Positions 10,551 through 42,739 of a DNA stretch of 62,468 nt are shown here, piece by piece. Source of the stretch: a virus (Duplodnaviria; Caudoviricetes). Location: positions 1 through 62,468 of IMG/VR virus record IMGVR_UViG_3300006802_000003. One strand, given 5' to 3'. The notes under the pieces were generated by a model, which saw only the letters and a list, made by a program, of their open reading frames with translations, was not told the DNA's origin and did no database searches. The position numbers were made by a program, and so were the translations under genes. The number at the start of each line of letters is the position of its first letter. Position 1 is the stretch's first letter.

Positions 10551-11546
10551 ATGGCCGTTGTCAATTGGACGACCAACAGTGAGGGTGGTTACACCTATGC
10601 GCCGGAGCTTTCAAAGGTCCTGCGCATGGCTGTCCGAGCCCTTACCAAGTTCCGCATGCTTTGCGATGCAAAAGACGCATCCGGCATGGGGCTGCGCAAG
10701 GGATCAACCTGGTACTGGAACGTTTACCAGCGTATGACCCCGCCGAGCTCGTACACGCTGTCCGAGTTCAACCCAATCCCGCAGGCAAACTTCACGATCC
10801 TGCAGAACAGCTTGACGATTCAGGAATACGGTCGTTCCGTGCCGTTCACCGAGCTCGTCACCAAGCTGGGCAAGCACGAAATCGTGGAAGTGATCGAGCA
10901 GGTCCTCAAGGACGATGCCGCTCACTGCTTTGATGCGGAGGCGTTTGATGCATTCAACACCACGCCGCTTCGCGTGGCGCCGACATCAGGCACCAGCACG
11001 ACTGCTGTCACGCTGACCACCAATAGCGCGACCGCAACCACCAACAACGTCGCGATGCGTAAGGATCACGTCAAGGCAATCGGTGATACGATGGCCGAGC
11101 GCAATATCCCGCCGTACCGTGGCGATGACTATGTGTCGATCTCGCACCCCACCACCTACCGGACCTTCAAGAACGATTTGGAGTCCATCAATCAGTATGT
11201 GGAGACTGGTTATGCGAAGATCATGCGCGGTGAAATCGGGCGTTTCGACAAGTTCCGCTTTGTTGAGCAGAACAACATCCCGAAGGGTGGCGCCAATGAC
11301 TCCACCACCTTCTCCGCGCAGTCGCGCACCGCAGATGCTTGGAACAACGGATTGTCGTCCTGGGCATTCTTCATGGGCCGCGACACCGTGAAAGAGGCCA
11401 TTGTCCACCCGCTTGAGCTTCGCGCCAAGATTCCGGGCGACTATGGTCGCGACCACGGTATGGCCTGGTACGCGCTGGAAGGTTTCGGGATCGTTCACCC
11501 CGACGCCGCGAACGCCCGCATAGTCAAGTGGGATTCGGCAGCCTAA
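10551..11546 (+). CDS. Major capsid protein (N4-gp56-like, HK97 fold)
   Basis: 331 aa; LTIQEYG, HP, GEIGR..RFVE and DYGR..GMAWY motifs; position after scaffold. Confidence 0.88.
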   Translation: MAVVNWTTNSEGGYTYAPELSKVLRMAVRALTKFRMLCDAKDASGMGLRKGSTWYWNVYQRMTPPSSYTLSEFNPIPQANFTILQNSLTIQEYGRSVPFTELVTKLGKHEIVEVIEQVLKDDAAHCFDAEAFDAFNTTPLRVAPTSGTSTTAVTLTTNSATATTNNVAMRKDHVKAIGDTMAERNIPPYRGDDYVSISHPTTYRTFKNDLESINQYVETGYAKIMRGEIGRFDKFRFVEQNNIPKGGANDSTTFSAQSRTADAWNNGLSSWAFFMGRDTVKEAIVHPLELRAKIPGDYGRDHGMAWYALEGFGIVHPDAANARIVKWDSAA

Positions 11547-17865: not shown

Positions 17866-18651
17866 ATGGGTATTTTCGATTGGCTATTTGGCTCGAACCA
17901 AGAAAAAACCGGGAGTACCAAGGTCGAGATTCCAAAGTGGATCGAGGACGCCGGCAAGTCCAATTACCAGTTTGCCCAATCCATCGCCAACAAGCCCTAC
18001 GAGGCCTACGGCGGGCCGGGCGTGGCCGACTTTAGCGGCCTTTCCAACAAGGCGTTTGACCTGATGGGCGGCATGTCCTTGCCCGCGCTTCTAGCGGGCG
18101 GCGGCGGTTTTGATATGTCTCGCCTGGGCGAGTTTATGAACCCGTTTACGCAATCGGTGATCGATAGCTCCATCAGCGACATGATTAAGGGCTCGCAGAT
18201 CGCGGGCGAAAACATGGACAACGCCTTTCACCAGGGCGGTGCGTTCGGTGACATGCGGCAAGGCGCGTTCGACGCCGAAAACTTGTCGAATCTGCGCCAG
18301 GACATCGGCAGGATGTCGAGTGGCCTCAACATGCAGAATTTCAATCAGGCGATGGACAGCCTGTTCAAGCTGCCGCAGTTCGAGAACCAGCAGCAACAGA
18401 ACGCCTTCTCGTTCCTTGATGCGCTACTCGGCGGAGGCGGCCTGCAAGAGAACAAGGCGCAGCAGGGCATCAATTGGGACTATGGCCAGTGGCAGGAAAA
18501 GCAGGGTGATGACATCAACAAGCTCAATATCCTTTCGTCGGCTCTGTCTGCAACGCCTTACTCCAAGGAGCAAACCACTTATGAGGCTGCACCATCTACG
18601 GGCGCCAAGGTTCTTGGCACCGGCCTGAATATCGCATCAATGTTCATCTAG
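17866..18651 (+). CDS. DNA ejection (pilot) protein
   Basis: G/Q/N-rich; FMNPF and GAFG motifs; hydrophobic Gly-rich C-terminus. Confidence 0.65.
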   Translation: MGIFDWLFGSNQEKTGSTKVEIPKWIEDAGKSNYQFAQSIANKPYEAYGGPGVADFSGLSNKAFDLMGGMSLPALLAGGGGFDMSRLGEFMNPFTQSVIDSSISDMIKGSQIAGENMDNAFHQGGAFGDMRQGAFDAENLSNLRQDIGRMSSGLNMQNFNQAMDSLFKLPQFENQQQQNAFSFLDALLGGGGLQENKAQQGINWDYGQWQEKQGDDINKLNILSSALSATPYSKEQTTYEAAPSTGAKVLGTGLNIASMFI

Positions 18652-19646: not shown

Positions 19647-22600
19647 ATGGCTGAAAAAGTCTTGATGCCGTGGGAACGCGACTGGAGCAACTTCCAGGCG
19701 GAACCCACGACACCTGATGAAACACAAGCGGCCCCTGCGGAAGATCAGGGTGACATGCCGTGGCAGCGCGATTGGTCGAACTACAAATTCATTGACGATC
19801 GCTTGCCGGGGATGGAGAAGGGCGACAAGCCAGAACCACCTACGCGCACGATCCAAGAGAAGGCCGCCGAGAAGGCCGGCATTTCCACGTCAGGTCGCCC
19901 AGTATGGCAGACGCCGGAAGGTGAACAGTACAGCGAGAAAACCGTCACCTTCCCGCTCGATGATGAAGGGAAGTCGTGGGCAACATTTCCGTCGGTCGAT
20001 GCCAGCGGCAAGGAAATGTCCGAGGACAAGGTTAAGCAATACGTTCTCCAGAACGGTTTGATTGACCCGATCACTGGTGAGAAGTTCCCGACATTTAACA
20101 GCCGCGAAGAAGCCTTGGCGTATGCTAAAGAACGCAGCGCCACGCGCCTCAAGGGCGAACCGTGGATGGAAGCTCCGGAAGTTAGCCCATTCAATCCACC
20201 GGCACCGAGCGCACCGGGCGAAGCGCCAACGACAGCAGAACGTGTCTCCAACTTTGGCGAGGGCGTTGTGCGCGGCGGCATAGACACCACCGGGCTCGCA
20301 GCTAAAGGCCTGGCCACCCTTGGCATGGTGAAGGACATCGAAGGCGTCACCGGCCTATTCAAATCTCTCGACAGCGCCAAGGATTGGACGCCGCAGCAAC
20401 GCAAGGACTTCCGTTGGGCCGTTCGCAACCAGCTCACCGAATCGCCCGGCCTTGGCATGGCCATGATCGACGCGGCGGACAAGATGCGTCGCGGCGAAAT
20501 TAAGTCGATCCAAGACGATCCGGAGCTAGTCAAGAAGTTCCAGGCCGCAATTCAGGACCCGCGCGAACGCCAAGCGTTTGCATTGGGTGAATGGCTGAAA
20601 GCCTACGGCCAAGAGAACTTCGGCGGCGATCCCCGGCTGCAAGAGGCTTGGGACACCAAGATTGCGCAGGGCTTTGGCTCGACGCTGCCGTTTCTCGCTC
20701 TTGGCCTGATGCCCGGCGGACAGGTTCTAGGTCCGATGGCCGGCACGTTCATGGGCCGCGGGGAGGCGCTGGAAAACGCTCTTGATGCGCAGCGCCAGGG
20801 CAAGAAGGTCGATCGCCAGCAGTTGCTCGATGCCGTTGGCTGGGGAACAATCCCCGGCGCGTCCGAATCGATCCCGATCGAGAACCTGCTGGGCCGTCTC
20901 CCCGGCGGCAAGGCGCTCGAAGCGATGGGCGCCATTGGCCGCATTGGCATGCAGGTGCTTGTCGAAGGCGGACAAGAGGCATTCCAGCAGTTCGCGCAAA
21001 ACGTCATTCAAAACTATGTCTACGACCCCAAGAAGGATTTGACCGAGGGCATCCTCGAATCAGCAGCGATCGGCGGTATTGTCGGCGGCGGCATGGGCGC
21101 CGTCACCGAGGGCGTCAAGGCTACAGGCTCTGCCGTGCTTGGAAAGGGCGACCGCGAGGAAGGTCCGCCGGAAGGCGACGCCACCATTTCCGCCGAGGCC
21201 ACGGCGACCGGCCAGACATCCACCGGCCCGGTCAAGACCAAAGAAGATGCTGTCCCGCCCGGCCCGCGCGCCGATCAGGTTTTGAAAGATGCAGGCTGGA
21301 CGGAAGAAGAAATCGCAGGCATGGCTCCACAGGCCCGCGCCCGCGCGGTGGAAGAGGCAATACAAACTGGCGTCAAGCCAGCCCCACAGCCCGGCCCCGC
21401 ACCTGGTACAGCTCCAGCAGCCCCGCCCATTCAGCGTGAGCAGCCCACCCGCGAGCCTACCAGCGACATCGATGCGCAGCTACGGGACCTCAAGGACCCG
21501 AACAACGCGCGCACGGCTGTCTACCTCTCCCCGACTACCGTTCAGCAGGCCATAGACACCGGCAAGCTGGACGCGATGAAAGCCGCAGGCGTTGCGATCG
21601 AGGACTTCGATGGCAAAGGCGGCATTCTAATCGCTGAAAACGACCAGTTCGCGCAAATGGCCACCCAGGCCAAGGCAGATGGCGTCCCGACCGACCAGAT
21701 CATCGGCATACTTACTGGATCAGGTCAGGGCAAGCCGGAAGGCGGCGATACCGTTGTCCAGCAGCGCGATGAGCAGGGCAATGTCACGCGCGAAACCGTC
21801 ACCACTGCCGATCAGGCGCAGCAGACGGCGCAGGCAATGCAAGAGTCCGGTCGCGGAACCACTGTCCTGTCGCCAGAGCAGGCGCTGGACGAGCGGGAAG
21901 CCCGCGCGGCTGCCGAAGTACCGGAGCCCGGCAAAGCCCCTGCAGCGCCCCCGCGCGTGGGCTCCAAGGACAAGCCGATTGATCTGGATCAAGTCGGAAA
22001 GCAGTTTGGCGGTGTGTTTGGTGCGCGCGAGGATGCCCGCGAAGCAGTCGAAGAGCCCAAGTCTGACGCCCAGGCCGAGGCTGGCAACTACAAGCATGCC
22101 CATGTCAGCGTAAACGGCTTTGGCATTGCGATGGAGACGCCAAAGGGTGGCCGGCGTACTGGCACCAATGAGGACGGGCAGCGGTGGGCCGTCAAGATGC
22201 CTGCCGATTATGGGCGCCTCAAAGGCACGAAGGGCATGGACGGCGACCAGATCGACGTTTACCTGGGCGAAAACACCCAAGCCTCTACGGTCTATATCAT
22301 CAACCAGCGCAACCTCGACGGATCGCCCGACGAGCATAAGGTGATGATGGGCTTTGACTCCGAGAAGGAAGCCCGCGACACTTACTTCAAGGGATTTAGT
22401 GACGGCAGCGGCCAGGCACGGCTTGACTCGATGGTGCCGATGTCGCTGGAAGAGTTTCAGGATTGGATCGACAATGGCGATCATACCAAATTCGTAGGAC
22501 CTTCCGATGAAGCAACACAAGTGCAGAGAGGCGAGGATAATCAGGGCGATGTGGGTGCATCGCCGGTATCTCCAGAGCCAACACCGGAAGGCGGTGAGCC

Positions 22601-25600
22601 CCGAGCACAAGGAAGTATGGAAAGTAGCGATCAGGTCGGCGGACGTGGCGCTGGCGACCGCGTTCAGCCTGATCCGGAACAACTAAGAGCTTTCCGCAAC
22701 TACCTTGTCGGCCCAGGCTCGATTGCCGACATCGACAAGCTGGCAAAACAACTCAAAATGCCTCGCGATGTTGTGGCCGCGATGTTGCAGGACGCCGCGA
22801 AAGACGGCGCGGTGATCGCCACGAAATCGGGCTCGTTCCGCCGGGCGCCGAAAGAAAAGAAGCCAGTGGACCTTATACGGTTCGTCGCTCACATCGGCGG
22901 CATTGCCGACCCTGACGGCGACGTGTCGGCCTTGACCGGCGGCACCAATCCCCTCGTTCCTGGCAAGGGCAAGCTCATTCGCGCCAAGGGCAATCGTCCA
23001 GACAAGGTGCGCGAGTTGGCCGTTGAGGCTGGTTATCTCCCCGAAGGCGCAAGCATCCGTGACCTGTACGACGCGATGGACCGCAACATGCGCGGCGATC
23101 GTGTCATTCGCGATGAGGATGCGGAATGGGAACAGGAGCTGCAGGCCCAGCAAGAGCAGGATGCGCTCAACGAAGAGTTTCCGACTGACGCTGAAAAGGA
23201 CCTGGTTCGCAAGCACGGCATCGGCGCGGCGCGCAAGCTCATCGCATTCCAGCAGGAAACCGGCCTTGGCGTTGGCGGCATGTCCGACGAAGAGGTTGCC
23301 AGGGCGGCGTCTTACATCGATCAGGGCATGGACGTGGATTCAGCAATTGAGCGCGCCGCGATCGAATACGCTGACGAAGGCCACATCAACGGCTATGATG
23401 ACATTACGGAGATTCCAGTCGATGAAATTTACCCGGACACAGCACCTGCAGATGGCGAAACGATCGAAGCAGATTTCGGCAGGGACGAAGGACCAGAAGA
23501 AGAAGGCCAAGTACAACGGCCTCGCCAAGACGTTCCGCGCACTAGCGAAAAGAGCGAAAAACTAGACAACAAGGCATTTGATCTAAGCATCAAGAAAGCC
23601 AAGGAAGCTGGCATAATTGGCGACTGGGAAACAAACACCACCATGTCGCCAGACAAGGTGTTTCCAAAACTTACAGGTAAAGTCGTTCGGGCCGAGGATG
23701 TGGCTGGTGACTATCTGCCGCCCGCCGAGGCCAAGTCCCGCGTGAAGGAATGGAAGGATTTTGCCAAGGCGCAGGGCGACACGATGCAAAATAGCAATCG
23801 CGTGATCCTGTCGTTGTTCGACTACACCGGAAACTGGTCAAAGCCGTTTGTCGATGCTGGCTTCACGGTCGTTCAGTACGACATCGAGTTGATGAAGGAG
23901 GACCCAGAATACGCCCCTGGCGACGAGAGGTTTGGGGAAATCTTGTCGCGCATGCCTACGGCTGACATTATCGCTTTGCGCAGCGCGGGTTATGAAATTT
24001 ATGGCGTCATGTCTGCCTGTCCATGCACCACGTTTGCGTCGTCCGGCGCTAGGTGGTGGGAGAGCTTGCATGACGTGGAATCGCGCGAGGCGGTGGAAAA
24101 GGTGTTTGGCGAATGGGTGCCGCAAGGCTTTGAGAGCCCGTTCGAGTACAACAAGGCGCTGGTTGCTGCCACCGAGGTCATTATTGAGTTTGCCAATCCG
24201 ACCGGCTTCCATGTGCTGGAAAATCCCGTTGGACGGCTTGGCCGCGCGACTGGGCTCGACAAACCTCAATATCGCTTCGACCCGAATAATTTTGGCGATC
24301 CGTACACCAAGAAAACGCAGCTTTGGGGTGATTTTGGAACGGAATTGCCGACCGCAAATGTGGAGCCAACCGAGGGCTCATTGATTCACAAGAAATCAGG
24401 CAAGGACCGTAGCCGCAGCGATACGCCGCTTGGCTTCGCCTATGCGTTCTTCATGGCCAACAATCCGGATGTGCGTAAGCCGTCGCGCGTTGTCGAGGAC
24501 CGTAGCGAAATGGACCCCGAAAAGCGGGCCGCGCGGGAGGAATATTGGGGTTGGCCAAATCCGATAGACGGCAAGATTGTCCAACGCAAGGATTTGTTGC
24601 CTGCCATTGAGGAGCAGGACGCCGATGCCTGGCCGCCCTACCGCGGCGACGTTCCAGAGTTTGGCAAGTTCGATGAAGAGCAAGAACTGGAAAACGGCAA
24701 CAAGGTTGCCTATTCCCGCTTGTCGTCTCTCAAGAAGGATGGCCAATGGCGAACCCACAGCATCTACAAGGAAATGCTGCCGAAGGGTGCGCCCATCTGG
24801 AGCAAGTCTGCTTCGGTCGTTGCGAAAGACAAGGAGGCCGCCGAGAAGCTGGCGTATGACATCCTGCACGGCGACGTTCAGCCCGACCTGTCTGGCACGG
24901 CAACCGAACGGCTCAACCAGTTCATGGATTGGGCGCTTGAGCACAGATACGATTCGTACAAAGGCAAACGCACCGGCGCTAATCCATACAATCTCGAAGT
25001 GCATTCCTGGAAGGATGAACCTCAAACGGATTTGCCAGATCAGGTGCAGTTTAGTTGGGGAGGGCCGAAAGAAAACGAGTTCGAGCACCAGAATAAAATC
25101 AAGTTCGTTCGTGAGGGCGACACATGGGCGATTGACCGCTTCACGCTTGCGGACAAGCCGCTTCGCAAAGCCGAATACAAGAACCGCTTGAATGACGTTG
25201 CCGAGCAAATCCTGTCCTTACCAGGCCTAGTGCCTGGCGCAATGCCGCAAGCGACAGACCTGTTCGCCACAGAGGCTGGCGCGGACGGCAAAGGGCAGAC
25301 AGTTATGCCCGGCATGGAGAAGATTAGCGACAAGGAGCTCGCAGAGCGCAAGGCCAAGGGCAAGAAGAAAGCCGCCGTTGCGCAGAAGGACATGGACGAG
25401 GGCTTGTTCGGAACGGACAAGGACCAAGTGGACATTGCAGACGTTGAGCAGCCTTCCGGCCTGTGGTCAGGTGACGACGATCCCCGCATTCCAGAAGGGC
25501 GCAAGGCGACCGCAGAGGTCAAGAAGCCGGTTGGCTACACGGAGATTTTTGGCCATGACCTAAACTTGAGTCCTACTTTCCAACCACCAAAAGAGCACCT

Positions 25601-28600
25601 GGTTCGCATCACAAACGAAACGCTCATTCACTATGCCAAGCGATACGATGTGCCGTGGGAAGGGCGGACGCGCGGCGAAGTATGGGCCGACATGCAGGCA
25701 AAAGGTGCAAAGAATGCAGGCTACGGCCAGATCATTCTCACACCGCACAAGGCCAAGGCCGCGGTGCAGTTGCTGCAAAACGCTGGCTACGGCGAAGGCG
25801 CCAAGATCAGCCACCAGCTATTTGCTAAGTTCAAGAAGGTACTTTTTGAAAACCTCGACCTCGTAAGGACAGAGGGCGAGTCGAACAGTGAAAAGCTAGG
25901 CGGAAACTGGACAGTTGGACACCTTCGGCAGCGCAAAGGCAACTATTCAATAAGCTGGGGTGCATACGGTCCCGATACGGTACTTCTCACCAGCATTACT
26001 GATCCCGAAAACGGCGTGGGCTATTCGGGCAGCACTGCAGGCGCAGCCAGAGTCAAGCGAGCTATCGAGGCGTTCATCGAGGAGAACAAGGACCGTAAGG
26101 GCGGCCCAGCTCCAGCGCCCCAGGAGCCAGCGAAGCCAGAGACTGAAATTCCGTCGCAGGAGCCAGCGCCGATCGCGGACATGGGAATTAGCATATTTTT
26201 CCGCGACGACGGCAAGCTGTCCAGGGACGTGAAGCAGGTTATTGTCGAAGTCGGCATGCACATGAATCCGAACGCGACCGCCGACGAGCGCAAGCGGGTG
26301 ATTGTGGACGGCTATTTCAAGTCTCCAAGGGCAGCCGGTTTCGCTTTTGACAGCGATCAAGGCGCCGGTATTCGCGTTGTCGATTACAATGGGAAGCCCT
26401 CGTTTGTCTCGGCACGGCAGGTGCGCGATGGCACCGTTCGCATTCGCGAGGACAAGTCTCCACCGCCATTGCCAACACAGCCAGAACAGGATGAGGATGC
26501 GTTTCTGGACGACATCATCAGCCAGGAACTGGGTGAACAACCCGCAGCAACCCCGCTTGCCAAGATCAAATCCCAGTTGATTGCCTATGCTTCTGGCATG
26601 ACTCGTACCAAGGATTTCGCTGCAGGCGCATATGCGTGGGGCAAGGAAAAGAACCTTGGCCTGGGTGTCGATGCAACCGAGCTCACCACAGAGGCAATCA
26701 AGGCTATCGCAGAGCGTCACGTCAACATGCAGACCAACTTGTTTGTTGATTCTGGCGCGTTCGGTGTGTTCCGGCGCAACATGCGCGCGGTTACGGAATA
26801 CCGCAAGGCCGCAGGCGATCTATTCCGGCAGCAAGGGCTCCCCACCCCGAAGCTGGAGAAAATGGACTTTGACAACGTAATTGCCCGTTACGAGCATCTG
26901 CAACTCGCCATCGAGAATGAGAATGTTGCCGAGGACCAGGATGTGCCGGCACCGTTGTTTGTTGCGCCTGACATTGTTGGCGACCAGCAGGGCAGCCTCG
27001 ATCTGCTGCGCCAGTTCGCGCCATCGATGCGATTCATTGGCAAGGGGCAGGTGGTCGTTCCTCTCCAGAAAGGAGACATGACGCTTGCCGAGGCTTACGC
27101 CAAGGCCAAGGCAATCATGGGCGGCAAGCCGTTCATTGCAGGCATTCCGTCCAATGCAAAGGCTGTAAGCGCCGAGGAGTTCCGGCAGTTCGTTCGCGAA
27201 TCTGACGCGACTGCCTTCCACTTCCTGGGCGCACTTTCTCCCAAGACGCTCGATCCAAAGCTGCAGGTGCTTGCGGATGAGAACGTGGACATCACGCACG
27301 TTTCTGCCGACGCCAATCTGCTGCGGTCAGCCCTCTATGGCAGCGCCGTAGCAAAAGAGCTTGGCCGTCCGGATGCAATCGTCAAGACGCTCGATGAGCA
27401 ACGCACGATTGGCCAGGCAGCCGCATCAGCAGCCAAAAACATTGGCGAGGGATTGAAAGACGTTGGCGACGCCTTCAACACCCTATTCAACGACCCAAAC
27501 AAGCTGAAATCCGGCATAGGCTTTGACGAAGAAACCTACGCCCGCGCAAAGCCCATTTTCAAAGCGGGCGCCGCTCATTTCTACGAAGCAGGCATGGATA
27601 TTGCCGAGGTTCTGCAAAAACTGGTACGTTGGCTCATGGCAAAGGACGGCGGCAACCAGCCGCCGGAAGCCATTAACCGGGCTCGACCGTACCTCAAGCA
27701 ATTCGTCAAAGACGTTCGAGACGGCAAGGAGCAAATCGATGTACCAGATCGACAGCCAGATATGGAACCAGGTCGCGGAGGCGAGCCCGCTCAAGACCGG
27801 CTTCGCGAAACGAATGTTCCCGCTGCCGCAGGACCAGATGGAGAAGGAGCTGGAGGCGGAAGAGGCCAGACTGGTGAAACTCAAGAGGGTGGACCCGGTA
27901 GTGGTGGCGGCATATCTGGCAGTAATGCCTCTCCTATGGGAAGCCGAATCGATCAGCGCATTTCTCGACCAGAGGCCGGGATTAGCGACTTCAATCCAAC
28001 CGATACCGACACTGACGGAGGCGTTGAGGGCGGCCAGCCAAGACTACCCATTGACAACGGCAGACCAGACAGCACTTCGGAATTTGCTACAGATAGCCCC
28101 GGAATAAAGGATCGCCAGAAAGCCCAGGCTGCCGCCGAATCCATTGAGGTCAAGGACGCTGACCTAGACAACATTCGCGAAACGCTCCCGATGCTGTATC
28201 CAAAGCAGCAGGAGGACGTTTACAAGATCGAGCAGCGTTTCACCAAGGGCGCCGGTATGCTCATCACCAACGGCACCGGCACTGGCAAGACGTTTTCCGG
28301 CCTTGGTGTCATCAAGCGGTTTGCCAAGAAGGGCAAGGGCAACATCCTGATCGTTGCTCCTTCTGACGGCATCCTGCGGGCGTGGATCACGTCTGGCAAG
28401 CTCCTTGGCATCGACATAAACAAGCTGGACGACACCAAGAGTGTAGGCGAGGGCATAGTTGCTACCACCTACGCCAACCTTGCCAACAACGAGACGCTGG
28501 CCGATCGCGAGTGGGATTTGGTCGTCACGGACGAGGCCCATAACCTTTCGTCCAACAAGGACGGCGCCGAAACTGCAAACCTCTCCACCTTCCGCGCCAT

Positions 28601-31600
28601 CACCCGCCACCCGCGCGCCGTGGTTAAGCGGACACAAATGCTGCATCGCGACCTGATGGAGAAGATTCGGAAGGTCAAAAGCGATCTGGAAGTTGCACGG
28701 ACTGCTGACGATCAACGCTGGTGGGCTCAAATTGAAGGGTACGAACGCCAACTCAAAGAGTATTGGAACCAATACCAGGAGCTCCAGAAGGCCGTTGAGG
28801 CCGACATGAAGGCCAAGCCGCGGCCCAAGGCGCTCTTCCTGTCTGCAACGCCGTTCGCGCATGTGTTCTCGGTGGACTACGCAGAGGGTTACCTGTTCGA
28901 CTACCCAGCCGACAAGCCCGGCGGCGGCTACAATTCCGCAGACGGTCGCAATGCGTTCTTTGTCGAAAACTTCGGCTTCCGCATGCGCTACAACAAGCTG
29001 ACGCGGCCAGAAGCGGAAGTGGATAGTTCGGTCATGGAGCGCCAGTTCCATGAGAAGCTGAAAAAGGAAGGCGCTCTTTCCGGTCGCAAGCTCGATGTCG
29101 AGCACGACTATGACCGCCGCTTCCAGACGGTCAACGACAAGGAAGGCGCCCGCATCGATGAGGGCTTCAAGTGGCTCCGCGATCAGGGCAAGGGCTTCCA
29201 TGCCGTAGCCGACATTTACCAGAAGAATTTCGACTACCTATCTCGCATGCGCTTGCTTGAGGCCATGAAGGCCAAGGCGGCAATTCCTTACATCCAGGCC
29301 CACCTTGATGCTGGCCGCAAGGTCATGGTGTTCAACAACTTCAACGAGGGTGGCGGCTTCACCGTATTCCCGAAGCTCATATCAGACGACGAAGTGTTCT
29401 GGTACGACGACAACATGAAACAACAGAGCGCCAAGCTCAAAGATCTGTATCAGGCATTCGAGGATGCCAATCCGTGGATCACCAAACTGGACTTCTCCGA
29501 CTATGACGCGCCGCGCCACACCCTGCGGGCAGCGTTTGGTGATCGGTTTGGTGAGTATAACGGCACCGTCACCGCGAAGAAGCGCGCCGAGAACCTGGAG
29601 CGGTTCAATAAGCCGGAAAGCGGCCTTGATGTCCTTGGCGTTCAGGCGGACGCCGGCGGAGCTGGGCTGTCTGGTCACGACACGCTGGGCATAGCGGAAG
29701 GCGGCAGGCAGCGCGTCCTTATGAACCTGGGTATGCCTGTGCGCCCGGTCACTGCAATCCAGCAGGAAGGCCGCATCTATCGCGATGGGCAGATGTCCAA
29801 TGCCATGTTCCGCTATTTCACGACCGGAACCACATGGGAGCGCATGGCCTTTGCGGGCTCGATCGCTGAAAAATCGGAAACGGTCGAGAACCTGGGCATG
29901 GGCGACATGGCCAGATCGTTGCGCGATTCGTTTGTCGATGCCTACGAAGAGGCAGGAGACTTCCAGCCTGGCCATGAAGATGAAGGGGTGGGTGGCAAGG
30001 AGCGCGACGCGCCGATCACCAACAATATGTCTGACTTTGAGCGCGCCAAGACGCATTATTGGGCGATCCAAAAGAACACTAGCAAACGCGAAAGCCGCGG
30101 TGAGTATTACGCTACGCCAGAGCCGGTCGGCGTCAAGATGGTGGAATGGGCCAACATCAAGGGAAATGAGCGCGTTCTGGAGCCGTCCGCCGGTCATGGC
30201 GCTATCTCCAGGTACATCCCGGCTAACACCAGCACGACCATTATCGACACCAACGAGGACCTGCTTTCGTCGGCAATGCTGCGGACCCAGCATGCCAAGG
30301 CGATCCGCAGTCAGTTTGAGGGCCACAACATCGTCAACAAATATGATGCTGTGGTGATGAACCCGCCGTTCGGCCAGGGCGGCAGTCTCGCAATCGCTCA
30401 CTTGGAAAAGGCTGTGAAGCACCTTCGCAATGGCGGTCGTGTCGTGGCCTTGATTCCGACCGGGCCTGCTGCCGATGCAAAATTCGACAAGTGGTGGCAC
30501 AACACCGATGGCAGCCTTGGCATGGTGGCCGAAATCAAACTTCCAAGCGTGACGTTCGCCCGCGCTGGCACCGGCGTTATGACCCGTATTGTCGTGATCG
30601 AGAAGCAGACGGATAAGGAAGTCGGGACGCCGATGGGGCCGCGCGCCGATCTGTCAGGCGCCCAGGACATCAATACGCTGTTCGATGCGCTCGACAATAT
30701 CACTTTGCCGCCTCGCGCGGAGCCGCTGACCAAGGACATCGACGCGCCGGCCATTGGGGAGTTCCGTATTGCTGGCATCGATGTAAACCTGCAAGAAAAT
30801 GTTGTGGGGCTTGCGAAGGGCGTAAAGCTGTCCAAGGAGCAATTCAAGCATTGGGCTCGGCTGGGCGAGGCCGCGCAAGGCACATACCTTAAAAGCCTTC
30901 GCGGATGGATGTTTGACAACCAGGAAATGCGCGACGCATTCCTTGCAAGCGTCGAGAAGAACCCCGAGCCCGCAATCATGGCGGAACCTGCCCCAGCCAC
31001 CCTGGACTTCGAGAAGAAGAAGGCGTGGCATGCGGTCAAGCAGCGCGACACGTTCGTTGCCGTTCCAAACCAACGCATCAGCACCGATGATTATGCCCGC
31101 GTGAAGCGCGTAGCGCAGGCCAATGGCGGATACTGGAGCAAGTACGCACAGAATGGTGCGATCCCTGGGTGGCAGTTTGAATCGGAAGCCGCTCGCGACA
31201 AGTTCATCGATGAAATCAAGGCAGCCCGGCCAAAGGACCTGGGCGCCCGCACCGAAGTGCCACTTTGGTATTCGCGCTTGGCTCGTTTTGTCCAGACGAT
31301 TCCGATGGCGAAGGGAACGCCAGATCAGTTTGCGGCCATGATCCAGAAAGGTCCGCTCAAGCCCAGCGAAATCGCCTGGAGTGGCGTCATAGAGTGGCTG
31401 GAGACGGAAAAGAACCTTGGCCGCCAAGTGGAGCGCGACCGACTGCTGGAATGGCTGAACGATAACCAGATCGCCATTGATGAGAATGTGCGTCAAGGCG
31501 GTTCGCCACTTGCCGAAGAGTTTTGGGTGAGCGACTTCGAGCGCGAAGAGCCAGGCCAAGAGTATGTCGATGACATTGCTCAAGACTACTTGCCAGATGA

Positions 31601-34600
31601 ATTGCAACGGCTGGCCGACGACAAGGGCGTTGCCGTCGATGAGCTCGATGATGCGGACGAGGAAGCTGCATTCGATGCTGCACGGCAACAGGCCTACGAC
31701 CACGCATCGGAAATGGCGAGTCAGAGGGCCAACGGCACCTATACCGGCTTCGCTGGGGATCAAGACTTCGAGGTTACGCAAGACGCGGACACCGGCGAAA
31801 TGATGCTCTACATGACCATCGAAGGAGTTCACTATTCCGAAAGCCTTCGCCGGTTTGCCGACAGTGCTGAAATCAAGCAGGCCGTCAGGGAAATGTACTC
31901 CGAGCATTACCGCCGCAATGATGAGGATTACAAGGAGACACTGCATGCCGAGCACACGGAGCCCGGCGGCGAGGACTATACGGAACTGACACTCACGCTT
32001 CCCTACGACACCGTAAAGATTCCGCAATGGGCGGTCACCGTCGCCACTGCAACACCCGGCGTCAGGCGTGTAATTTCTCGCTATACGGATCGCCAGAACG
32101 CGGAATGGTGGATCAAGGAAAACAAGCCAGATGATGCCGAAGTTGAATTGCAGTGGGTAAACCGCACCCACCTGGTCGAAGATCACTGGCCGGATGAAGA
32201 GAATGTCATTGCCCACCTGCGCTTCAAGACCCGCTATATCGATGGCAAAAAGGTCATGGCCATTGAGGAGGTTCAGGGTGATCTAGGCCAAGAGCTACGC
32301 GACAAGAAAAAGGAATTGGCTCGCCTCGAAGGCAATCCGGCTGTCAACAAGGACTACCTGGCTGTCAACAAGCGCGACATCGACTTCCTTGAGAAATTCC
32401 CGTTTACCCCGTCCGAGGAATGGAGCGCGCTTGCGATCCGCCGGGCGCTGCGCTGGGCCGTGGACAATGGCTTCGATCGTGTCGCATGGACGCCGGGCGT
32501 TGTCCAGGCGAAGCGGTGGAAAGCGGATCACTACATTAACGCTTTCACCGTGCTCAACCGCAGTGAATATGCCGGCACACCCACCTTCCAGCTCACCCTT
32601 GAAGCCGACACCGGCCTGCACATCCTAGAATTTGATGATCGACAGACCATCATTTCTGCCAAGGGCTGGGTGATGTCCAAGAACCTTGGAAAAAACCTCA
32701 AGGAAGTGTTTGGTGAGCAGATGGCCGCCGACATTGTGGCCGCCATCAAGCCGAAGGATGGCACCGGCTTCAAGCAGTACAAAGAACCGATCCGCTGGGG
32801 CGGCGAAGGTCATCGCTTCTATTACGACACCCTGCTGCCAAAGCTGGTTGGCAAGATCGCCAAGCCGTTTGGAGCGAAAGTTGAAGCCTTGCAAATGGCC
32901 GACCTTCCAACGCCGGTTACTGATGCGGACGTGATCGCTTATCACGATATGAGCGTAGAGTTTTGGCGCTCCCTCACGACGCGACAGAAAATGGACTTGT
33001 CCAATGAGGCAATGAAAGGCAACGCTGGCGGCTACCAAAAATGGTGGTCGCTCGACGTAAACGACGCCATGCGCCAGGAAGTCAGCCAGGGCATTCCTCT
33101 TTGGCAGAAGAAATACCTAAAGGCCGCCAATCCAAACGAAGGGCGCCGCCTGACGACACGCGAGCAGGTGCGCATCAAGGAAATGGTGGACGAAGTGGCC
33201 CAGCGCGTCCTTGGTCGGTCATTGCGCGGCGTGAAGCTGTTCACGCGCCTCTATGACGAGGCCAATAGCGGCGCTTACGAGCACGGCACCGGCGTAATCA
33301 AGCTGGCGCTGGAAGGTTGGCTGAACCCGTTGGTGGGCATTCGCCACGAATCGATCCACGCTTTGCTGCGCACTGGCGTCATTTCCAAGCCTGAATTTGG
33401 CGTCCTTCGCCGCAACGCCGCCCGCTGGCGCCGGGACTACAGTATCGAGGAACGCTATCGCGACTTCTTTGAGGAGAATTACCCGCAAGACATGCCTGGC
33501 CGCAATGCTGCGATTGAGCTATCGATGGACGAGGAAGCCATTGCCGAAGCGTTTGCGCGTCATTGGATGCTGCAAGAAGAGCGCGGCATCATCGCTCGCA
33601 TCTTCAACAAGATGAAGAATTTCCTGGAAGCCTTGCGCAACGGGCTAACTGGGCTGGGCTACGAATCGGCGGAACAGATATTTAGCCGCATCGAGGAGGG
33701 CGAGGTTGGCGAGCGCACCCCACGCATTCCCCGCAGCGTTAGCGCGCCCACCACGCACCTGTACGCTTCGGGCAAGCCGGCGCCTGCACGGTCTATCGAA
33801 ATGGGCGATACGCCGAGCATTACGCTGGCGAAACCGCCCAGGCTATTCGCCAAAGACCCTCGCTTCAACTTTGAAGAGGGGGCCGATGGCAAGCCGCAGT
33901 CAATGATTCCCGGCTCCGAATCTATGACTAAGGCGCAGCTCGACATTATCAAATCGCGTGAAGCCAAGCGCCGTGCCGAGTTGACATATAAATCAACTCT
34001 CAAGCCAACGGTCGAGCAGGAAAAGATTGGCGGCCTGTTTGAGCAGGTGGAGAAAGACGACGATCCACAAGGCTCACTGTTCGTTCGCAACGTGTTGCAA
34101 GGCAGCCATGCCGTGTCGATTCCGCAGCGCACCAGGCGCATGCTCCAGCACCTTCGCCAAGGCGCCAGCGAATACACGGTTCTATGGCGTCGCCGCATGC
34201 AGGACAGGTTCATTGACTGGAAAAACCTGGAGCGCAAGATGGCGCTGCCAGAATATCTGTCCGTATATCGCGCGGAAGAGCTCTATTATGGCAAGGTCGG
34301 CGGGCGCATGGATGATATGCGCTGGACTCACTTCGAGCCCATCATGCGCGCGATTCGCGACAAGAAAATCAAGGTGGACGAGTTCAACAAGTTCCTGATG
34401 GCCATGCATGCCAAGGAGCGCAACGACTTCATCGCCACGCGCAACCCGAAAATGCCGGATGCCGGTTCTGGTATCGCTACCCAAGACGCACTGGACTACC
34501 TCAACATGCTCCGTCGTCATGGCAAACTGCGCGACATGATGGATGTGGGCCGCATGGTATGGGCCATGAACCAGGCTGCGCTTGATGAGCGACTGGCGGA

Positions 34601-36925: not shown

Positions 36926-38148
36926 CCGAGTTCCAGGCAGGCGCCGCCTTGCAGCGCACCAAGGGCGCCGTTGAGCGCGCCGCAGCGATGGTGCCATGCC
37001 ACCCGGCGATGATTGCTGCATTCATCGATGTGGAGGCTGGCGGGACCGGCTATTACGCCAACAACATGCTCAAGGTGCTGCCAGAGCCTCACTGGCTTTA
37101 CCGCCTGCTGCCAACCGGCCAGCGCAACAAGGCGCTAATGCTGGGACTGGCAATCAAGAGCTGGTCGCGATCCACCTACAGGCGCATGTTTCCAACCGCG
37201 ATGTCGCGCTACGATTACCTGAATGACGTGGCTAGTCGCTGGGGCAAGGAAATCGCCGTTGACACGGCGTCCTGGGGCGCCGGGCAGGTCATGGGCTTCA
37301 ATGCGGAGAAGTGCGGCTATGGCTCCGCCGTTGAAATGTATGATGCATTCGCCGGGTCGGAAGATGAGCAAATCATTGCAATCGTCAAGTACCTGATCCG
37401 CTCCGGTGGACGTGACGAGTTGCAGCGCGAGGACTGCCAAGGCTTGGCGAGGATCTACAATGGATCTGGACAAGTGGCCATCTATGCGCCGCGCCTTGAA
37501 GAGGCCTTGAAGCGCCGCAAACGTCAAAAGTGGCAAAAAACACCTAATTCGCGTTTGCCTGCCAAGCGAGACAAAGATTGGATAGGCATGGGCGACAGCG
37601 GCGCCCAGGTCAAAGTCCTGCAGGAGCAGCTAGTCGCGCTGGGTTACTTTGTCGAAGTGGACGGCGACTTCGGGCCAGCGACCAGGAGGGCGGTGCGCAA
37701 CTTCCAGCATGACCGCGGGCTAAAGGTCGATGGATACGCTGGATCGGACACTATGGCCGAGCTCATTCGCGCCAAGCCGGTCCCTGCGGTCTATCAAGGC
37801 AATCCAACCGAGCGCGAGGAGGCGACCGGCGACGATCTGCTGGCCAAGGGATCGAGCACGGTGCGTCGCGCCCGGCAGGGAAAACTTACCAATGTCGTCA
37901 CTGGGAGTCTAGCTGGGGCAGGCGCTATAGGGAGCGTTATCGAGGCTGGCGAGACGGCACAAAGTAACGCAGAGCGCGCCGGCGGATTGTTGGAGTGGAT
38001 TCTACCAAACAGCCTGTCAGGCTATGTGGTTTGGATCATGGCCGTGGTCGCAGGGCTGTCCATCATCGGCTGGATCGTCAACAACAAGATCGAGCGCCGC
38101 CGCGTGGAAGAACACAGGCGGGGCAAAAACCTATCGATTGGAGGGTAG
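36922..38148 (+). CDS. Endolysin: N-acetylmuramidase (DUF3380-like) + peptidoglycan-binding domain + C-terminal TM
   Basis: VEAGG, EPH, SWGAGQVMGFN and YNG motifs; LQEQL..GY..VDGDFGPAT..FQ..GLKVDG. Confidence 0.88.
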   Translation: MTEFQAGAALQRTKGAVERAAAMVPCHPAMIAAFIDVEAGGTGYYANNMLKVLPEPHWLYRLLPTGQRNKALMLGLAIKSWSRSTYRRMFPTAMSRYDYLNDVASRWGKEIAVDTASWGAGQVMGFNAEKCGYGSAVEMYDAFAGSEDEQIIAIVKYLIRSGGRDELQREDCQGLARIYNGSGQVAIYAPRLEEALKRRKRQKWQKTPNSRLPAKRDKDWIGMGDSGAQVKVLQEQLVALGYFVEVDGDFGPATRRAVRNFQHDRGLKVDGYAGSDTMAELIRAKPVPAVYQGNPTEREEATGDDLLAKGSSTVRRARQGKLTNVVTGSLAGAGAIGSVIEAGETAQSNAERAGGLLEWILPNSLSGYVVWIMAVVAGLSIIGWIVNNKIERRRVEEHRRGKNLSIGG

Positions 38149-38150
38149 CT

Positions 38151-38417
38151 ATGCTTCAAATCATATCGTGGGCGAAGAGCCTCGTGCTCGGATCGATGTC
38201 CAAAATCTATATCTACGCCGGGATTGCGGTGGCCGGGATCATTGCCGTTGCCTCGATCTTGGCAGGCGCCCGCAAGGCTGGCCGGGATGCTGAACGTGCT
38301 CGCCAAGCCAAGGCTCGCCTGGAAGCCATAGCGCACAAGAACAAGCTGGATCGCGAAATAGATGCTTTGGATGATGATCGACTGATGGAAAGGGCAAAGC
38401 GATGGGCAAGGGACTAA
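38151..38417 (+). CDS. Inner spanin-like protein
   Basis: N-terminal TM followed by a helical periplasmic part; follows the endolysin. Confidence 0.65.
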   Translation: MLQIISWAKSLVLGSMSKIYIYAGIAVAGIIAVASILAGARKAGRDAERARQAKARLEAIAHKNKLDREIDALDDDRLMERAKRWARD

Positions 38418-38614
38418 TGCTTTTGGTGGCCATGCTGACATTGGCCGGATGCGATGCGTGGAAGCAGGCCTATGGCGACTTCTGCGACGTGGCAGAGCCT
38501 CATTTTCACACCACTGCAGCCCTCAAGGCTATGAAGCCGAAACAGGTTGCAACGGAGGTCAAGCACAATGAATACGGTGAAGCAAAGTGCGGATGGAAAG
38601 CCAACAGTAATTGA
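38402..38614 (+). CDS. Outer spanin-like lipoprotein
   Basis: Lipobox LAGC; overlaps the end of the i-spanin gene. Confidence 0.65.
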   Translation: MGKGLMLLVAMLTLAGCDAWKQAYGDFCDVAEPHFHTTAALKAMKPKQVATEVKHNEYGEAKCGWKANSN

Positions 38615-38909
38615 TCGCCTCAAGGCCATCACGGTTGGCGAGATTTGCGCGGTCGTCATTCCGTTGGGTGCCGTTATCGGCGGCATATGGTGGCTGTTCG
38701 AGCCCGCCGTGGCCGGGCAGATCGAGCGCGTTATCAAAAAATACGGCGTGGACAAGGATAGCTTTCAGCGCGTCCAGGGCGAGATTGAGGACATCAAGAC
38801 CAAACAACGCCGGGTTCTCGACCAGAACGCCACCATCATTTTCCAACTGCAGCAATTGCGCGACGAGCTCAAAAAAAAGCCCGCCGCCGGGGCCGACAAC
38901 GGGCAGTAA
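38568..38909 (+). CDS. Membrane protein (holin candidate)
   Basis: One TM plus coiled coil at the end of the lysis cassette; start uncertain. Confidence 0.5.
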   Translation: MNTVKQSADGKPTVIDRLKAITVGEICAVVIPLGAVIGGIWWLFEPAVAGQIERVIKKYGVDKDSFQRVQGEIEDIKTKQRRVLDQNATIIFQLQQLRDELKKKPAAGADNGQ

Positions 38910-38932
38910 GTTTGGAGAAATGCGTATGTCAT

Positions 38933-39184
38933 TTACGCAGGCTCTAATCTGCTCTCAACGTCAGCAAAAAGCAAGATATAAGGCACCTGGATTGTTTTGG
39001 CGATCAGGTAAAGCGTAGGAGCACTTATGCGCCTTTTTCCCGCTTCCCATTGCTGGACCGTCTGCTGGGCAACGTCCAGTTTCTCCGACAAAGCGGCTTG
39101 AGACATTCCCACTTCCGTTCTCCAATATTGGATCGCCTTGCCGATCTGCTTGGCAACAACGGCCTCTTCCTCTTTGCGGTTCAT
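38933..39184 (-). CDS. XRE-family HTH regulator
   Basis: GMSQAALSEKLDVAQQTVQQWEAG. Confidence 0.88.
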   Translation of the reverse strand: MNRKEEEAVVAKQIGKAIQYWRTEVGMSQAALSEKLDVAQQTVQQWEAGKRRISAPTLYLIAKTIQVPYILLFADVESRLEPA

Positions 39185-39555
39185 ACCTTGGTTCCCCCAC
39201 CACCCCTGCGCACCGGCCCCTTCACAATTTCCGGCGGCACTTCCCCCTCTCCCTCATCGACTGAATCAGGAATCACGTCACCAACGATGTTTTGCACATC
39301 GCTGTACGCCGCTTGAATTGCCTCGTGCATTGCGTCGAGCCTTAATTCCAAGGTGTTTAATGCTTCGAGGTCCTTCTCATACCTCTGCCGCAGGTTTTCT
39401 TTCGCCGCGACAATTTCCCCTTTCATGGTGCTGGCCCAATCCGCACTCCCCTTTCTGCCATCATTCATGGCGTTCCATATTGCATCAAACGCATTGTAAA
39501 CAGCGTCCGCAGCCTGGCTCGCTGCGAGGATTACCGGGTTATTGAAATCAGTCAT
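39181..39555 (-). CDS. Hypothetical coiled-coil protein
   Basis: GGAGCAAG RBS. Confidence 0.75.
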   Translation of the reverse strand: MTDFNNPVILAASQAADAVYNAFDAIWNAMNDGRKGSADWASTMKGEIVAAKENLRQRYEKDLEALNTLELRLDAMHEAIQAAYSDVQNIVGDVIPDSVDEGEGEVPPEIVKGPVRRGGGGTKV

Positions 39556-39961
39556 TTGCTTGCTCCTTTAGGTTCGGCTTCTCGCCGTTCATCATGTCTG
39601 CGATCCGCACCAGGTACTCGGTGCGGCGCGGCATATAGATCGCCACCAGCTCCTGCAGCATCCACGGATCGTTGGTATGCTCATACAGGTGCGCCGCGAA
39701 GGCGATCACATCAACTCCCACATACTCCCACCATAGCCGTTCGTTGTGATTGTGCTGCGCGCCTGAATGCATGGTGTGCAGCTCTGGACACAAGGGAACG
39801 GCCCATCGGTCGTCTGGCTTCTCGCCCATGCCGGTTGGCCTTTTGCCCGCAGGCTCCCAGCCAAACCTCACATGGGCCGCGTGGACGCCTGGGCGGGCCG
39901 TCAGGACGCATGGAAGCGCCCTGATCCGGTTTAGGTGGCCTTCGTCACGAACACGCTTCAT
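39548..39961 (-). CDS. DUF968/Ref-like HNH-type nuclease
   Basis: HL..IRALPC..HAAHVR..DDRWAVPLC..H..QH. Confidence 0.7.
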   Translation of the reverse strand: MKRVRDEGHLNRIRALPCVLTARPGVHAAHVRFGWEPAGKRPTGMGEKPDDRWAVPLCPELHTMHSGAQHNHNERLWWEYVGVDVIAFAAHLYEHTNDPWMLQELVAIYMPRRTEYLVRIADMMNGEKPNLKEQAND

Positions 39962-41088: not shown

Positions 41089-41091
41089 GGC

Positions 41092-42327: not shown

Positions 42328-42739
42328 TGTCTTGCTCCTTTGTGAACCTGTGCGGGGCGATCTTGCCCCATTGGATTGTGAAATCCGGATTGGCTTCCGG
42401 GCTGTCAGGCTCATGAATGGCCGCCCATTCGAGTTTCTGGTACAGGTACAGGTAGGCCGATTCCGTGATGGGATCGTGAGCGAGCCACGTCCACGCCGTC
42501 ATGGGGTCAAAGACCTTCCTGTAGATTTTGCACTTGAACACTTCATCATCGGTGAGCCGCCCGCTTTGATCGACGGGTTGATGGCACCAGATCACCGCTG
42601 GCACATAGGGGCCGCCCTTCACTAGCCTGGTTCTGTACCAGCCGCATTGCGGATCGCCGTCATGTATTTCTGGATGTCCGCCCAAAATCGCGGACGTGTG
42701 CCATTTGTATAGCTCGCGCCGGGGTGTTGGCCGTCTCAC
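42320..42739 (-). CDS. Hypothetical protein
   Basis: PQCGWYRTRLVKGGPYVPAVIW; overlaps both neighbours. Confidence 0.7.
   Translation of the reverse strand: MRRPTPRRELYKWHTSAILGGHPEIHDGDPQCGWYRTRLVKGGPYVPAVIWCHQPVDQSGRLTDDEVFKCKIYRKVFDPMTAWTWLAHDPITESAYLYLYQKLEWAAIHEPDSPEANPDFTIQWGKIAPHRFTKEQDND

Follow-up and report, generated by a model that had tools for sequence, protein, structure and literature searches.

A DpdA-like barrel domain within a giant polyvalent phage protein, a candidate DNA guanine transglycosylase

The window analysed here, that is, the whole 62,468-bp DNA of the Caudoviricetes virus record IMGVR_UViG_3300006802_000003, is a complete record (direct terminal repeats, completeness 100; the repeat is an exact 123 bp) and encodes a giant polyvalent protein of 5,719 amino acids. 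Embedded in this protein is a compact barrel domain which, judging from profile alignments and a structural model, very probably belongs to the superfamily of tRNA-guanine transglycosylases (TGT) and their DNA-acting relatives, the DpdA proteins, and has an intact active site. The gene, the domain and six motifs within the domain are located as follows (window coordinates; residue numbers are those of the giant protein):

19647..36806, + strand: gene for the giant polyvalent protein, 5,719 amino acids (single open reading frame, Pfam matches)
26541..27425, + strand: DpdA-like (beta/alpha)8 barrel lacking zinc, amino acids 2299-2593 (AlphaFold2 model, homologues and hhalign)
26739-26762, + strand: LFVDSGAF, from amino acid 2365; D2368, predicted general acid/base; F2372, predicted base-stacking residue
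26964-26984, + strand: APDIVGD, from amino acid 2440; D2442 would bind guanine at its Watson-Crick edge
27054-27068, + strand: VVPLQ, from amino acid 2470; Q2474 replaces DpdA His181 and phage 9g DpdA His141
27138-27152, + strand: AGIPS, from amino acid 2498; the beta6/alpha6 loop, by which TGT and DpdA read the 7-substituent
27216-27230, + strand: FHFLG, from amino acid 2524; L2527 is the predicted second base-stacking residue
27300-27314, + strand: VSADA, from amino acid 2552; D2555 is the predicted nucleophile

A preliminary description of the window had singled out these six strings as following the order of the TGT barrel; each of them occurs once, in that order, in the + strand frame of the open reading frame 19647-36806 (amino acids 2365-2556), and the span assigned to the domain at that stage, 26580-27330 (amino acids ~2312-2561), falls within the domain as placed here (amino acids ~2299-2593, nucleotides 26541-27425). 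Conservation was counted over 135 near-full-length domains of the family, drawn from giant and stand-alone proteins. Seven residues, namely D2368, D2442, P2501, H2525, L2527, G2528 and D2555, are invariant, and F2372 (93%), Q2474 (90%), G2476 (99%) and R2560 (96%) are nearly so. The APDIVGD region also includes P2441 (99%), G2445 (94%), D2446 (80%) and Q2447 (96%), and the invariant proline of AGIPS is accompanied by G2499 (87%) and S2502 (84%). All six motifs contain a residue conserved in at least 90% of the rows and five contain an invariant one; as a pattern of aligned sequences, the motifs are not due to chance.

An AlphaFold2 model of the domain, built from a 26-sequence alignment, consists of eight beta/alpha units (pLDDT 92.3, pTM 0.90). 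The motifs map to the C-terminal ends of strands 3-8 or immediately beyond them (model residues 66-70, 139-141, 170-174, 199-203, 225-229 and 253-258), and it is the C-terminal strand ends that form the active-site face of TIM barrels. The model thus has the (beta/alpha)8 architecture of TGT, with a putative active site at the C-terminal face, the pocket being placed from the strand positions. After strand 8, the model contains three helices only, two of them short and one a 19-residue terminal helix.

A Foldseek search against the PDB retrieves many TIM barrels with E values of ~2e-5 and TM scores of ~0.5, among which the TGT of Z. mobilis is mixed with aldolases and others. An exhaustive VIA-align structural search against 48,161 representatives, scored as Z, places at the top ArcTGT (1iq8, Z 15.4), followed by Cap10 (9ntn_B), fructose-bisphosphate aldolase (3pm6) and TGT (3unt) with 15.0 each, the YdjI aldolase (14.6), DpdA (7ui4) and a class II aldolase (1rv8) with 14.2 each, PdxJ (13.5) and QTRT2 (13.1). 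Chains of the TGT superfamily occupy five of the top ten places, and generic barrels follow at Z ~12. Because aldolases tie with the TGT-superfamily chains, the fold alone leads only to the statement that the domain is a TIM barrel with TGT-like barrels among the best matches. In a viral structure library, the first rank goes to a member of the family that forms part of an ART-PolyVal protein (E 8e-13), and next come several phage models annotated as queuine tRNA-ribosyltransferase (E 1e-4 to 6e-3).

Profile comparison identifies the domain as an uncatalogued branch of the superfamily, nearest to the small 9g-type DpdA of phages. The namesake of that type is gp3 of Enterobacteria phage 9g (the coordinates used for its gene are L002:3007-3960), which is reportedly placed in the DpdA1 subfamily by Hutinet 2019. 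An AlphaFold model of the 9g-type DpdA (24 sequences; pLDDT 57, pTM 0.53) is too poor to serve as a structure-search query. An hhalign comparison of the 135 family domains with a 9g DpdA profile, which is shallow (9g and its best 120 homologues, all at least 70% identical), yields a probability of 93.2% (E 2.9e-7, score 55.7) over 145 columns that cover strands 3-7, with ~16% identity over the aligned columns; 20 column-shuffled controls score at most 19.5 (at most 0.7%), and the reversed template and reversed query score 17.4 and 17.0, respectively. The profile of PF23859-type DpdA, made from four sequences that come from four of the 401 Pseudomonadota genomes, is matched over 182 colinear columns (probability 55.9%, E 1.1e-4, score 38.6), with 20 shuffled controls at or below 18.4 and the reversed control at 17.4. 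Thus, homology to accepted DpdA proteins is detectable by way of both groups. For calibration, 9g DpdA compared with PF23859-type DpdA gives 93.9% (E 1.6e-7, score 57.4), so that the family is as near to 9g DpdA (93.2%) as the two accepted DpdA groups are to each other.

Other comparisons are less informative. Between the family and DpdA4 (HVTV1_69), the match falls short of significance (4.9%, E 0.008). The single sequence of E. coli TGT is matched by hhalign with probabilities of 3.5% and 7.9%, only the DSG[GA]F stretch being aligned, and this comparison cannot decide, because the 9g DpdA profile itself reaches only 2.1% on the same sequence; a tblastn search with E. coli TGT against phages finds canonical TGTs and no DpdAs. 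An ESM Atlas feature search leads to one cluster with 17% of its members carrying Pfam DpdA, a weak lead only because the recognition value of 1774 is below the 2300 mark.

The biochemistry of the superfamily provides roles for the conserved residues. In the DpdA of Salmonella, D95 is the general acid/base and D256 the nucleophile, and the substitutions D95A and D256A eliminate exchange; D130 and H181 bind the base at its Watson-Crick edge, and it is sandwiched by F99 and L236 (PMC10164549). The window residues, aligned with 9g DpdA, match these roles in the pairs D2368/D95, F2372/F99, D2442/D130, Q2474/H181, L2527/L236 and D2555/D256, and the spacing of D2368 and F2372, an aspartate and a phenylalanine four residues downstream, is the same as that of D95 and F99. 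The PF23859-type DpdAs have MLDSGAF, PVLQGW, LHGFGVK and HSADS at the matching places. The residue-by-residue correspondence with 9g DpdA in hhalign is as follows:

D2368: D72
F2372: F76
D2442: D114
G2445: G117
D2446: D118
Q2474: H141
G2476: G143
G2499: G166
H2525: H196
L2527: F198
G2528: G199
D2555: D215, in global mode only

The alignment thus predicts three invariant active-site aspartates and a base-stacking pair (L2527 invariant, F2372 at 93%). The preliminary description had named a fold other than the TGT barrel, or misplaced catalytic aspartates, as what would speak against its proposal; the model is a (beta/alpha)8 barrel and the three aspartates fall on their DpdA counterparts. Its assignment of the domain as TGT/DpdA-like is upheld by the barrel, whose best structural neighbours include ArcTGT, Cap10, TGT, DpdA and QTRT2 (although class II aldolases tie within 1 Z), by the 93% hhalign match to phage DpdA and by the alignment of the aspartates.

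The family is large. A phmmer search against 1.84 billion representative proteins finds 516 relatives at E<=1e-3 (counted as representative clusters at 50% identity), 173 at <=1e-10 and 47 at <=1e-30, which are either parts of proteins 1.8-7 thousand residues long or stand-alone proteins with ~240-450 amino acids. When the whole giant protein is compared by phmmer with 75 related giants, amino acids ~2300-2590 are common to 56-66 of these and the flanks to at most 13; this sharp block of coverage indicates that the barrel is a discrete module which is shuffled among different architectures. At 118 loci taken from viral and metagenome contigs, the open reading frame with the domain has at least 1,500 amino acids in 50, 500-1,499 in 16 and fewer than 500 in 52 (nine of these 52 are cut by the locus end), and in a FastTree phylogeny of 173 domains the giant/small label switches at least 25 times. 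The 33 giant homologues (3,145-10,009 amino acids) display repertoires of InPase, LPD38, Sno-type helicase, ART-PolyVal, DdrB-ParB, RadC and Zeta; none of them has a TGT or DpdA Pfam label, and their source names are absent or generic. A ParB-superfamily domain is present in 7 of the 33 (P0285, P0286, P0288, P0289, P0048, P0297 and P0291; PF18763 DdrB-ParB in six and PF02195 in one), a co-occurrence that is possibly relevant because bacterial DpdA requires the ParB-like ATPase DpdB (PMC10164549).

The stand-alone members provide few contextual clues. Clustering of the neighbours of 43 stand-alone genes detects no neighbour common to more than 9 loci, and these neighbours are generic mobile-element genes. 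Microvirga genomes contain six stand-alone members (one is encoded on plasmid pMVF16-3), next to genes for an OMP beta-barrel and GDPD; a contig search of genomes with the single window domain as query finds nothing, and a smaller alignment leads to these six loci. The Microvirga genomes G040, G042, G043 and G044 contain 2 to 5 QueC-family matches each, and G040 encodes a PF23859-type DpdA (L131) besides its stand-alone family member, so that two distinct DpdA-like enzymes coexist in one organism. The 50,697 phage records that were searched, by megablast with the giant gene and by tblastn with the domain and with the stand-alone member of locus L034, contain no match and thus no cultured relative, and a word-index search with alignment A1 retrieves only 10 proteins, none of them named.

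Of special interest for the prediction of function are the genes for synthesis of 7-deazaguanines. The preliminary description had reported no folE, queD, queE or queC in this genome, and a six-frame search of the complete genome with hidden Markov models (HMMs) bears this out: no match at E<=10 is obtained with the models of QueC, PTPS/QueD, GTP cyclohydrolase I, radical SAM and QueF, nor with that of the Vut_1 transporter. Synthesis genes of this pathway, a feature of the known phage dpdA clusters, are missing from the window and are found at one of the 118 family loci. This locus, L034, lies on a 40.5-kb viral contig (G032, 55% complete) that encodes a 261-amino-acid stand-alone member, matched to the family by hhalign with a probability of 99.9% (E 2.8e-35) and containing the motifs FVDSGAF, APDCIGDQ, VPLQKG, HFLG and SLDA. 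In the operon L034:7592-10525, the genes for QueD (PTPS, 5.6e-22), QueC (2.6e-58), FolE (1.6e-63) and a radical-SAM QueE are followed by the family member, with gene ends that overlap or abut; a DNA polymerase A gene is located upstream and an Eco57I-type N6-methylase gene downstream. The contig has no PF01702 or PF23859 match, and the family member itself shows a weak similarity to DUF6610 (DpdA4; E 7e-5, 23 bits, cut-off 27). This gene arrangement is that of the known phage dpdA clusters (9g, HVTV-1).

The context of the domain within the giant protein and the virion module is defined by the following features:

22065..22469, + strand: InPase domain, amino acids 807-941 (PF18823, E 8e-45)
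28194..29909, + strand: SF2 helicase block (ResIII/DEAD/SNF2, amino acids 2850-2986; Helicase_C_4, amino acids 3332-3421)
30168..30446, + strand: N6-adenine-type methyltransferase, amino acids 3508-3600 (PF05175 MTS, E 4e-5, 23.8 bits)
35811..36416, + strand: LPD38 domain, amino acids 5389-5590 (PF18857, E 1.5e-40)
10551..11546, + strand: major head protein, marking the virion module, which the giant gene closes (phrog_1357, E 2.6e-16)
17866..18651, + strand: homologue of DNA ejection proteins, two genes upstream of the giant gene (phrog_4287, E 6e-8)

InPase is a marker of phage-type polyvalent proteins, and both InPase and LPD38 are given as phage-only (Iyer 2017, PMC5512222). The giant protein unites several unrelated enzymatic domains in one chain (InPase, SF2 helicase, MTS methylase and LPD38) and is encoded with virion and late genes, with homologues of major head, tail fibre, virion structural and DNA ejection proteins upstream and an endolysin-like gene downstream. 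The InPase and LPD38 domains characterize the protein as polyvalent and of phage type, its gene stands at the end of the virion module near the DNA-ejection homologue, and the label "putatively injected" is a reasonable inference from the membership in the polyvalent family and the virion-module position; the giant protein is probably packaged and may be injected. The helicase block begins ~260 amino acids C-terminal of the barrel (GTGKT at amino acid 2878, DEAH at 2962) and is followed by the methyltransferase (NPPF at amino acid 3572), and by domain composition this pair of helicase and N6-methylase is a DarB-like dyad. For dyads of the DarB type, a role in the in-cis modification of injected DNA has been proposed, in which the ATPase would translocate along the DNA (PMC5512222).

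Eight unassigned segments of the giant protein have no Pfam match at E<=0.01. In one stretch, amino acids 1389-1527 (window 23811-24227), there is a series of cytosine-C5-methyltransferase-like motifs, SLFDYTG, CPC and ENP, with no Pfam match even at E<=1; the surrounding block of amino acids ~1350-1600 is common to 13-14 of the 75 related giants and, by its motifs, could represent a DNA methylase module of divergent sequence. There is one HExxH motif (HESIH, amino acids 4567-4571, window 33345-33359), in a region without Pfam match, and it may mark a zincin-like peptidase of the kind proposed to cut polyvalent proteins into units (Iyer et al., PMC5512222). Elsewhere in the window, the virion module opens with two large + strand open reading frames, 1296-3269 (657 amino acids) and 4039-8571 (1,510 amino acids), that have no PHROG match at E<=1e-3. 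At 38000-42500, the GC skew and the AT skew go negative, and the long minus-strand open reading frames 39958-41088 and 41092-42414 form a short opposite-strand block after the giant and endolysin-like genes.

For this domain, the analysis shows the fold, the homology, the conservation of the active site, the absence of que genes and the polyvalent, virion-module context. The function that appears best compatible with these observations, with a probability of roughly 0.55 for the full statement (DNA as the substrate, a 7-deazaguanine as the incoming base, the host as its source), is that of a DNA guanine transglycosylase using host-derived 7-deazaguanine; what we infer concerns the substrate, the incoming base, the moment of action and the helper. 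Under this hypothesis, D2368 would protonate and expel a guanine flipped out of duplex DNA, F2372 and L2527 would sandwich the base, D2442 and Q2474 would read its Watson-Crick edge and D2555 would act as the nucleophile; a free 7-deazaguanine base (preQ0 or preQ1) would then resolve the intermediate, so that guanine is replaced by a restriction-resistant analogue. As genes for synthesis or salvage are missing from the phage genome, the base would have to come from the queuosine pathway of the host. There are precedents for such dependence: 9g dpdA expressed alone in E. coli from pBAD24 inserts dPreQ0 into plasmid DNA from host preQ0, at ~0.3% of G, and there exist phages with dpdA only, most of whose hosts have the queuosine pathway (PMC6884629). 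As part of a virion-module protein, the domain would have the phage genome as its target in cis, upon entry, in the producer cell prior to packaging, or at both stages, and the adjacent SF2 translocase could, speculatively, fill the role that the ATPase DpdB has for bacterial DpdA.

A number of observations weigh against this interpretation. The first group concerns the precursor. A tblastn search with three Que protein sets detects que genes within 10 kb of only one of the 118 family loci; QueC and PTPS/QueD each exceed the Pfam cut-off in one of 38 viral records, which is the same contig, G032; and neither is above the cut-off in any of the 24 records with a completeness of 90% or more, one of which has a sub-threshold PP-loop (QueC-model) match of 19.3 bits. 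In the tree, the L034 member sits on a long branch in another starred clade than the window domain, the clade of L034 comprising 63 rows, mostly stand-alone, and that of the window 60 rows, among which 35 are giant. QueC is encoded elsewhere in four of the six Microvirga genomes that contain a stand-alone member, and the other two yield no match. The second group concerns the active site, where the nucleophile D2555 is aligned with D215 of 9g DpdA in global mode only and where the beta6 loop, Gly-rich in TGT and DpdA, has the invariant P2501; because this loop reads the 7-substituent, the incoming base could differ.

The third group consists of failures of recognition. There is no match at E<=10 to PF01702 (TGT), for either the domain or the six-frame genome, with E. 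coli TGT as a positive control at 2.8e-168; none of the window to PF23859 (DpdA) at E<=10, nor of any of 38 related viral records at E<=1; and none of the window to PF20314 (DUF6610/DpdA4) at E<=10. PADLOC recognizes none of 26 family members at E<=10, amino acids 2252-2618 produce only noise against Pfam, PHROGs and NCBIfam (DUF5678, E 0.2; phrog_26424, 0.01; ElyC, 0.045), and sequence searches of the PDB with the single sequence and with the profile find nothing. None of the Pfam LPD models matches the barrel module, and Pfam assigns no relevant family to 34 distant stand-alone members. The failure of the curated models is, however, no argument against superfamily membership, because the proven DpdA of phage 9g is missed as well: it has no match to the Pfam TGT, DpdA (PF23859) or DUF6610 models at E<=10, and its close homologues have no precomputed Pfam domain.

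Among the alternatives, the one that survives best retains the covalent chemistry of TGT and DpdA but changes the outcome or the target; we consider it rather unlikely. In this version, the domain would be a hydrolytic DNA glycosylase for guanine or modified guanine, an exchanger of a base other than preQ0 or preQ1, or an enzyme that erases or copies a Dpd-type mark on host DNA. The homology and the catalytic residues fit these options equally, 117 of the 118 loci lack que genes, the 7-substituent loop with P2501 is specific to the family, the domain is shuffled among polyvalent architectures beside nucleases, ART domains and toxin-like domains, and the stand-alone members are surrounded by generic mobile-element genes. 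The single informative gene context, in contrast, is an operon for preQ0 synthesis; hydrolysis would leave abasic sites, also in the co-injected genome; and phages that have only DpdA and rely on the host are known (PMC6884629).

That the domain is an unrelated TIM-barrel enzyme, aldolase-like or handling sugars or phosphates, with convergent motifs, appears improbable. Class II aldolases, PdxJ and mannanases are within 1-2 Z of the TGT-like chains and share the top Foldseek ranks with them, the curated TGT and DpdA models give no match and the link to DpdA4 is not significant. Against these, two independent DpdA profiles align colinearly and far above the shuffled and reversed controls, the family invariants coincide one-for-one with the catalytic and base-binding residues of DpdA, one member is encoded in a preQ0 operon and, as a weak lead, there is the Atlas cluster with its DpdA-labelled members.

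More improbable still is an action on host tRNA, at guanine 34 or another guanine, by which exchange or removal of a base of the queuosine family would reprogram translation early in infection. The superfamily is shared with the tRNA-guanine transglycosylases, and polyvalent proteins do carry RNA-targeting domains (PBECR; Iyer 2017, PMC5512222). The window domain nevertheless has none of the elements with which TGT (PF01702; bacterial TGT and ArcTGT) holds its substrate: the zinc subdomain, the N-terminal lid and the tRNA-binding insertions, among them the large beta8/alpha8 insertion that holds the anticodon loop and is pinned by the CxCx2C...H zinc site (roles in PMC10164549), are all missing, and only the three helices follow strand 8. 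The CxCxxC motif is found in 0 of the 135 family domains, including 150 amino acids downstream, and no cysteine column exceeds 7%; the functional 9g DpdA, too, has no CxCxxC. The nearest detectable relatives are DNA-acting DpdAs, with E. coli TGT at 3.5-7.9%. Thus, the action on host tRNA that had been considered in the preliminary description becomes less likely, and DNA rather than tRNA is the likely substrate by these comparisons. Finally, an inactive or purely DNA-binding module kept in the polyprotein is very improbable, because even though polyvalent proteins hold many uncharacterised LPD modules (PMC5512222) and the activity is a prediction only, the predicted catalytic residues are invariant in 135 giant and stand-alone members, which is unexpected for a pseudo-enzyme.

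Phage 7-deazaguanine modification is pictured as self-contained, with synthesis genes and a stand-alone DpdA that acts post-replication. With 9g DpdA, the window domain shares a small barrel without CxCxxC, an identical DSGAF, the patterns xDxxGDx, H-x-[LF]-G and S-x-D, and the fact of being missed by the Pfam TGT and DpdA models; 9g DpdA, however, is encoded by a stand-alone gene beside folE, queD, gat-queC and queE, whereas the window domain is a module of a 5,719-amino-acid protein with none of these co-encoded, and has Gln for His at the Watson-Crick-edge position as well as the invariant proline in the beta6 loop. The PF23859-type DpdA of Salmonella Montevideo (PDB 7UI4) has the same general acid aspartate, aromatic residue at +4, edge aspartate, stacking leucine and nucleophile aspartate, and the PVLQG and HSADS of this type resemble VPLQKG and VSADA of the window domain. 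Unlike the window domain, bacterial DpdA has a zinc site (CxCx2Cx22H) that pins a 128-residue beta8/alpha8 insertion, Ins8; it also needs DpdB and belongs to a restriction-modification-like host system (PMC10164549), whereas no DpdB is detected in the window and the neighbour within the polypeptide is an SF2 helicase.

DpdA4/DUF6610 (gp69 of Halovirus HVTV-1) is likewise a viral DpdA branch of great divergence that only profile methods brought to light (PMC10516641), but HVTV-1, unlike the window phage, encodes its own preQ1 pathway. The subfamilies known from that source, bDpdA and DpdA1-4, are all described as stand-alone enzymes, and DpdA is proposed there as a signature gene for phage 7-deazaguanine DNA modification. 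With the polyvalent proteins of Iyer 2017 and DarB of phage P1, the giant protein has in common the multi-enzyme chain, InPase and LPD38, the virion-module position and the helicase-methylase dyad (PMC5512222). The main text of that survey contains none of the terms "TGT", "queuine", "TIM barrel" or "deazaguanine", and a full-text literature search, within the text it covers, returns no paper that links DpdA or TGT to polyvalent proteins; the link in PMC12839542 is a reference-list citation of Iyer 2017 only. What is new, as far as sequence comparison goes, is a DpdA-like subfamily deployed as a domain of a polyvalent virion-module protein without phage-encoded base synthesis.

A more far-reaching version of the proposal can be put forward only tentatively: it is possible, although doubtful, that a widespread class of DpdA-like enzymes, so far in no catalogue and carried inside phage particles as modules of giant polyvalent proteins, rewrites incoming guanines with bases from the host queuosine pathway, an SF2 translocase in the same polypeptide replacing DpdB. 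Hypermodification would then be achieved without biosynthesis by the phage, in cis and within minutes of the start of infection, in parallel with DarB-type methylation.

The family described here would be a large hidden branch of the superfamily, with 516 clusters that are missed by every curated model, models which overlook even the best-known phage DpdA, that of 9g, and it is almost never accompanied by synthesis genes. Its members are candidate small (~260-290 amino acids), zinc-free transglycosylases for DNA base exchange, and the L034 member is the natural first candidate for DNA 7-deazaguanine insertion. If the domain is active, 7-deazaguanines derived from host precursors could be present in many phages that now count as unmodified, polyvalent proteins would possess a second, chemically different route of marking DNA beside methylation, and the queuosine metabolism of the host would become one factor that determines whether a phage escapes restriction.

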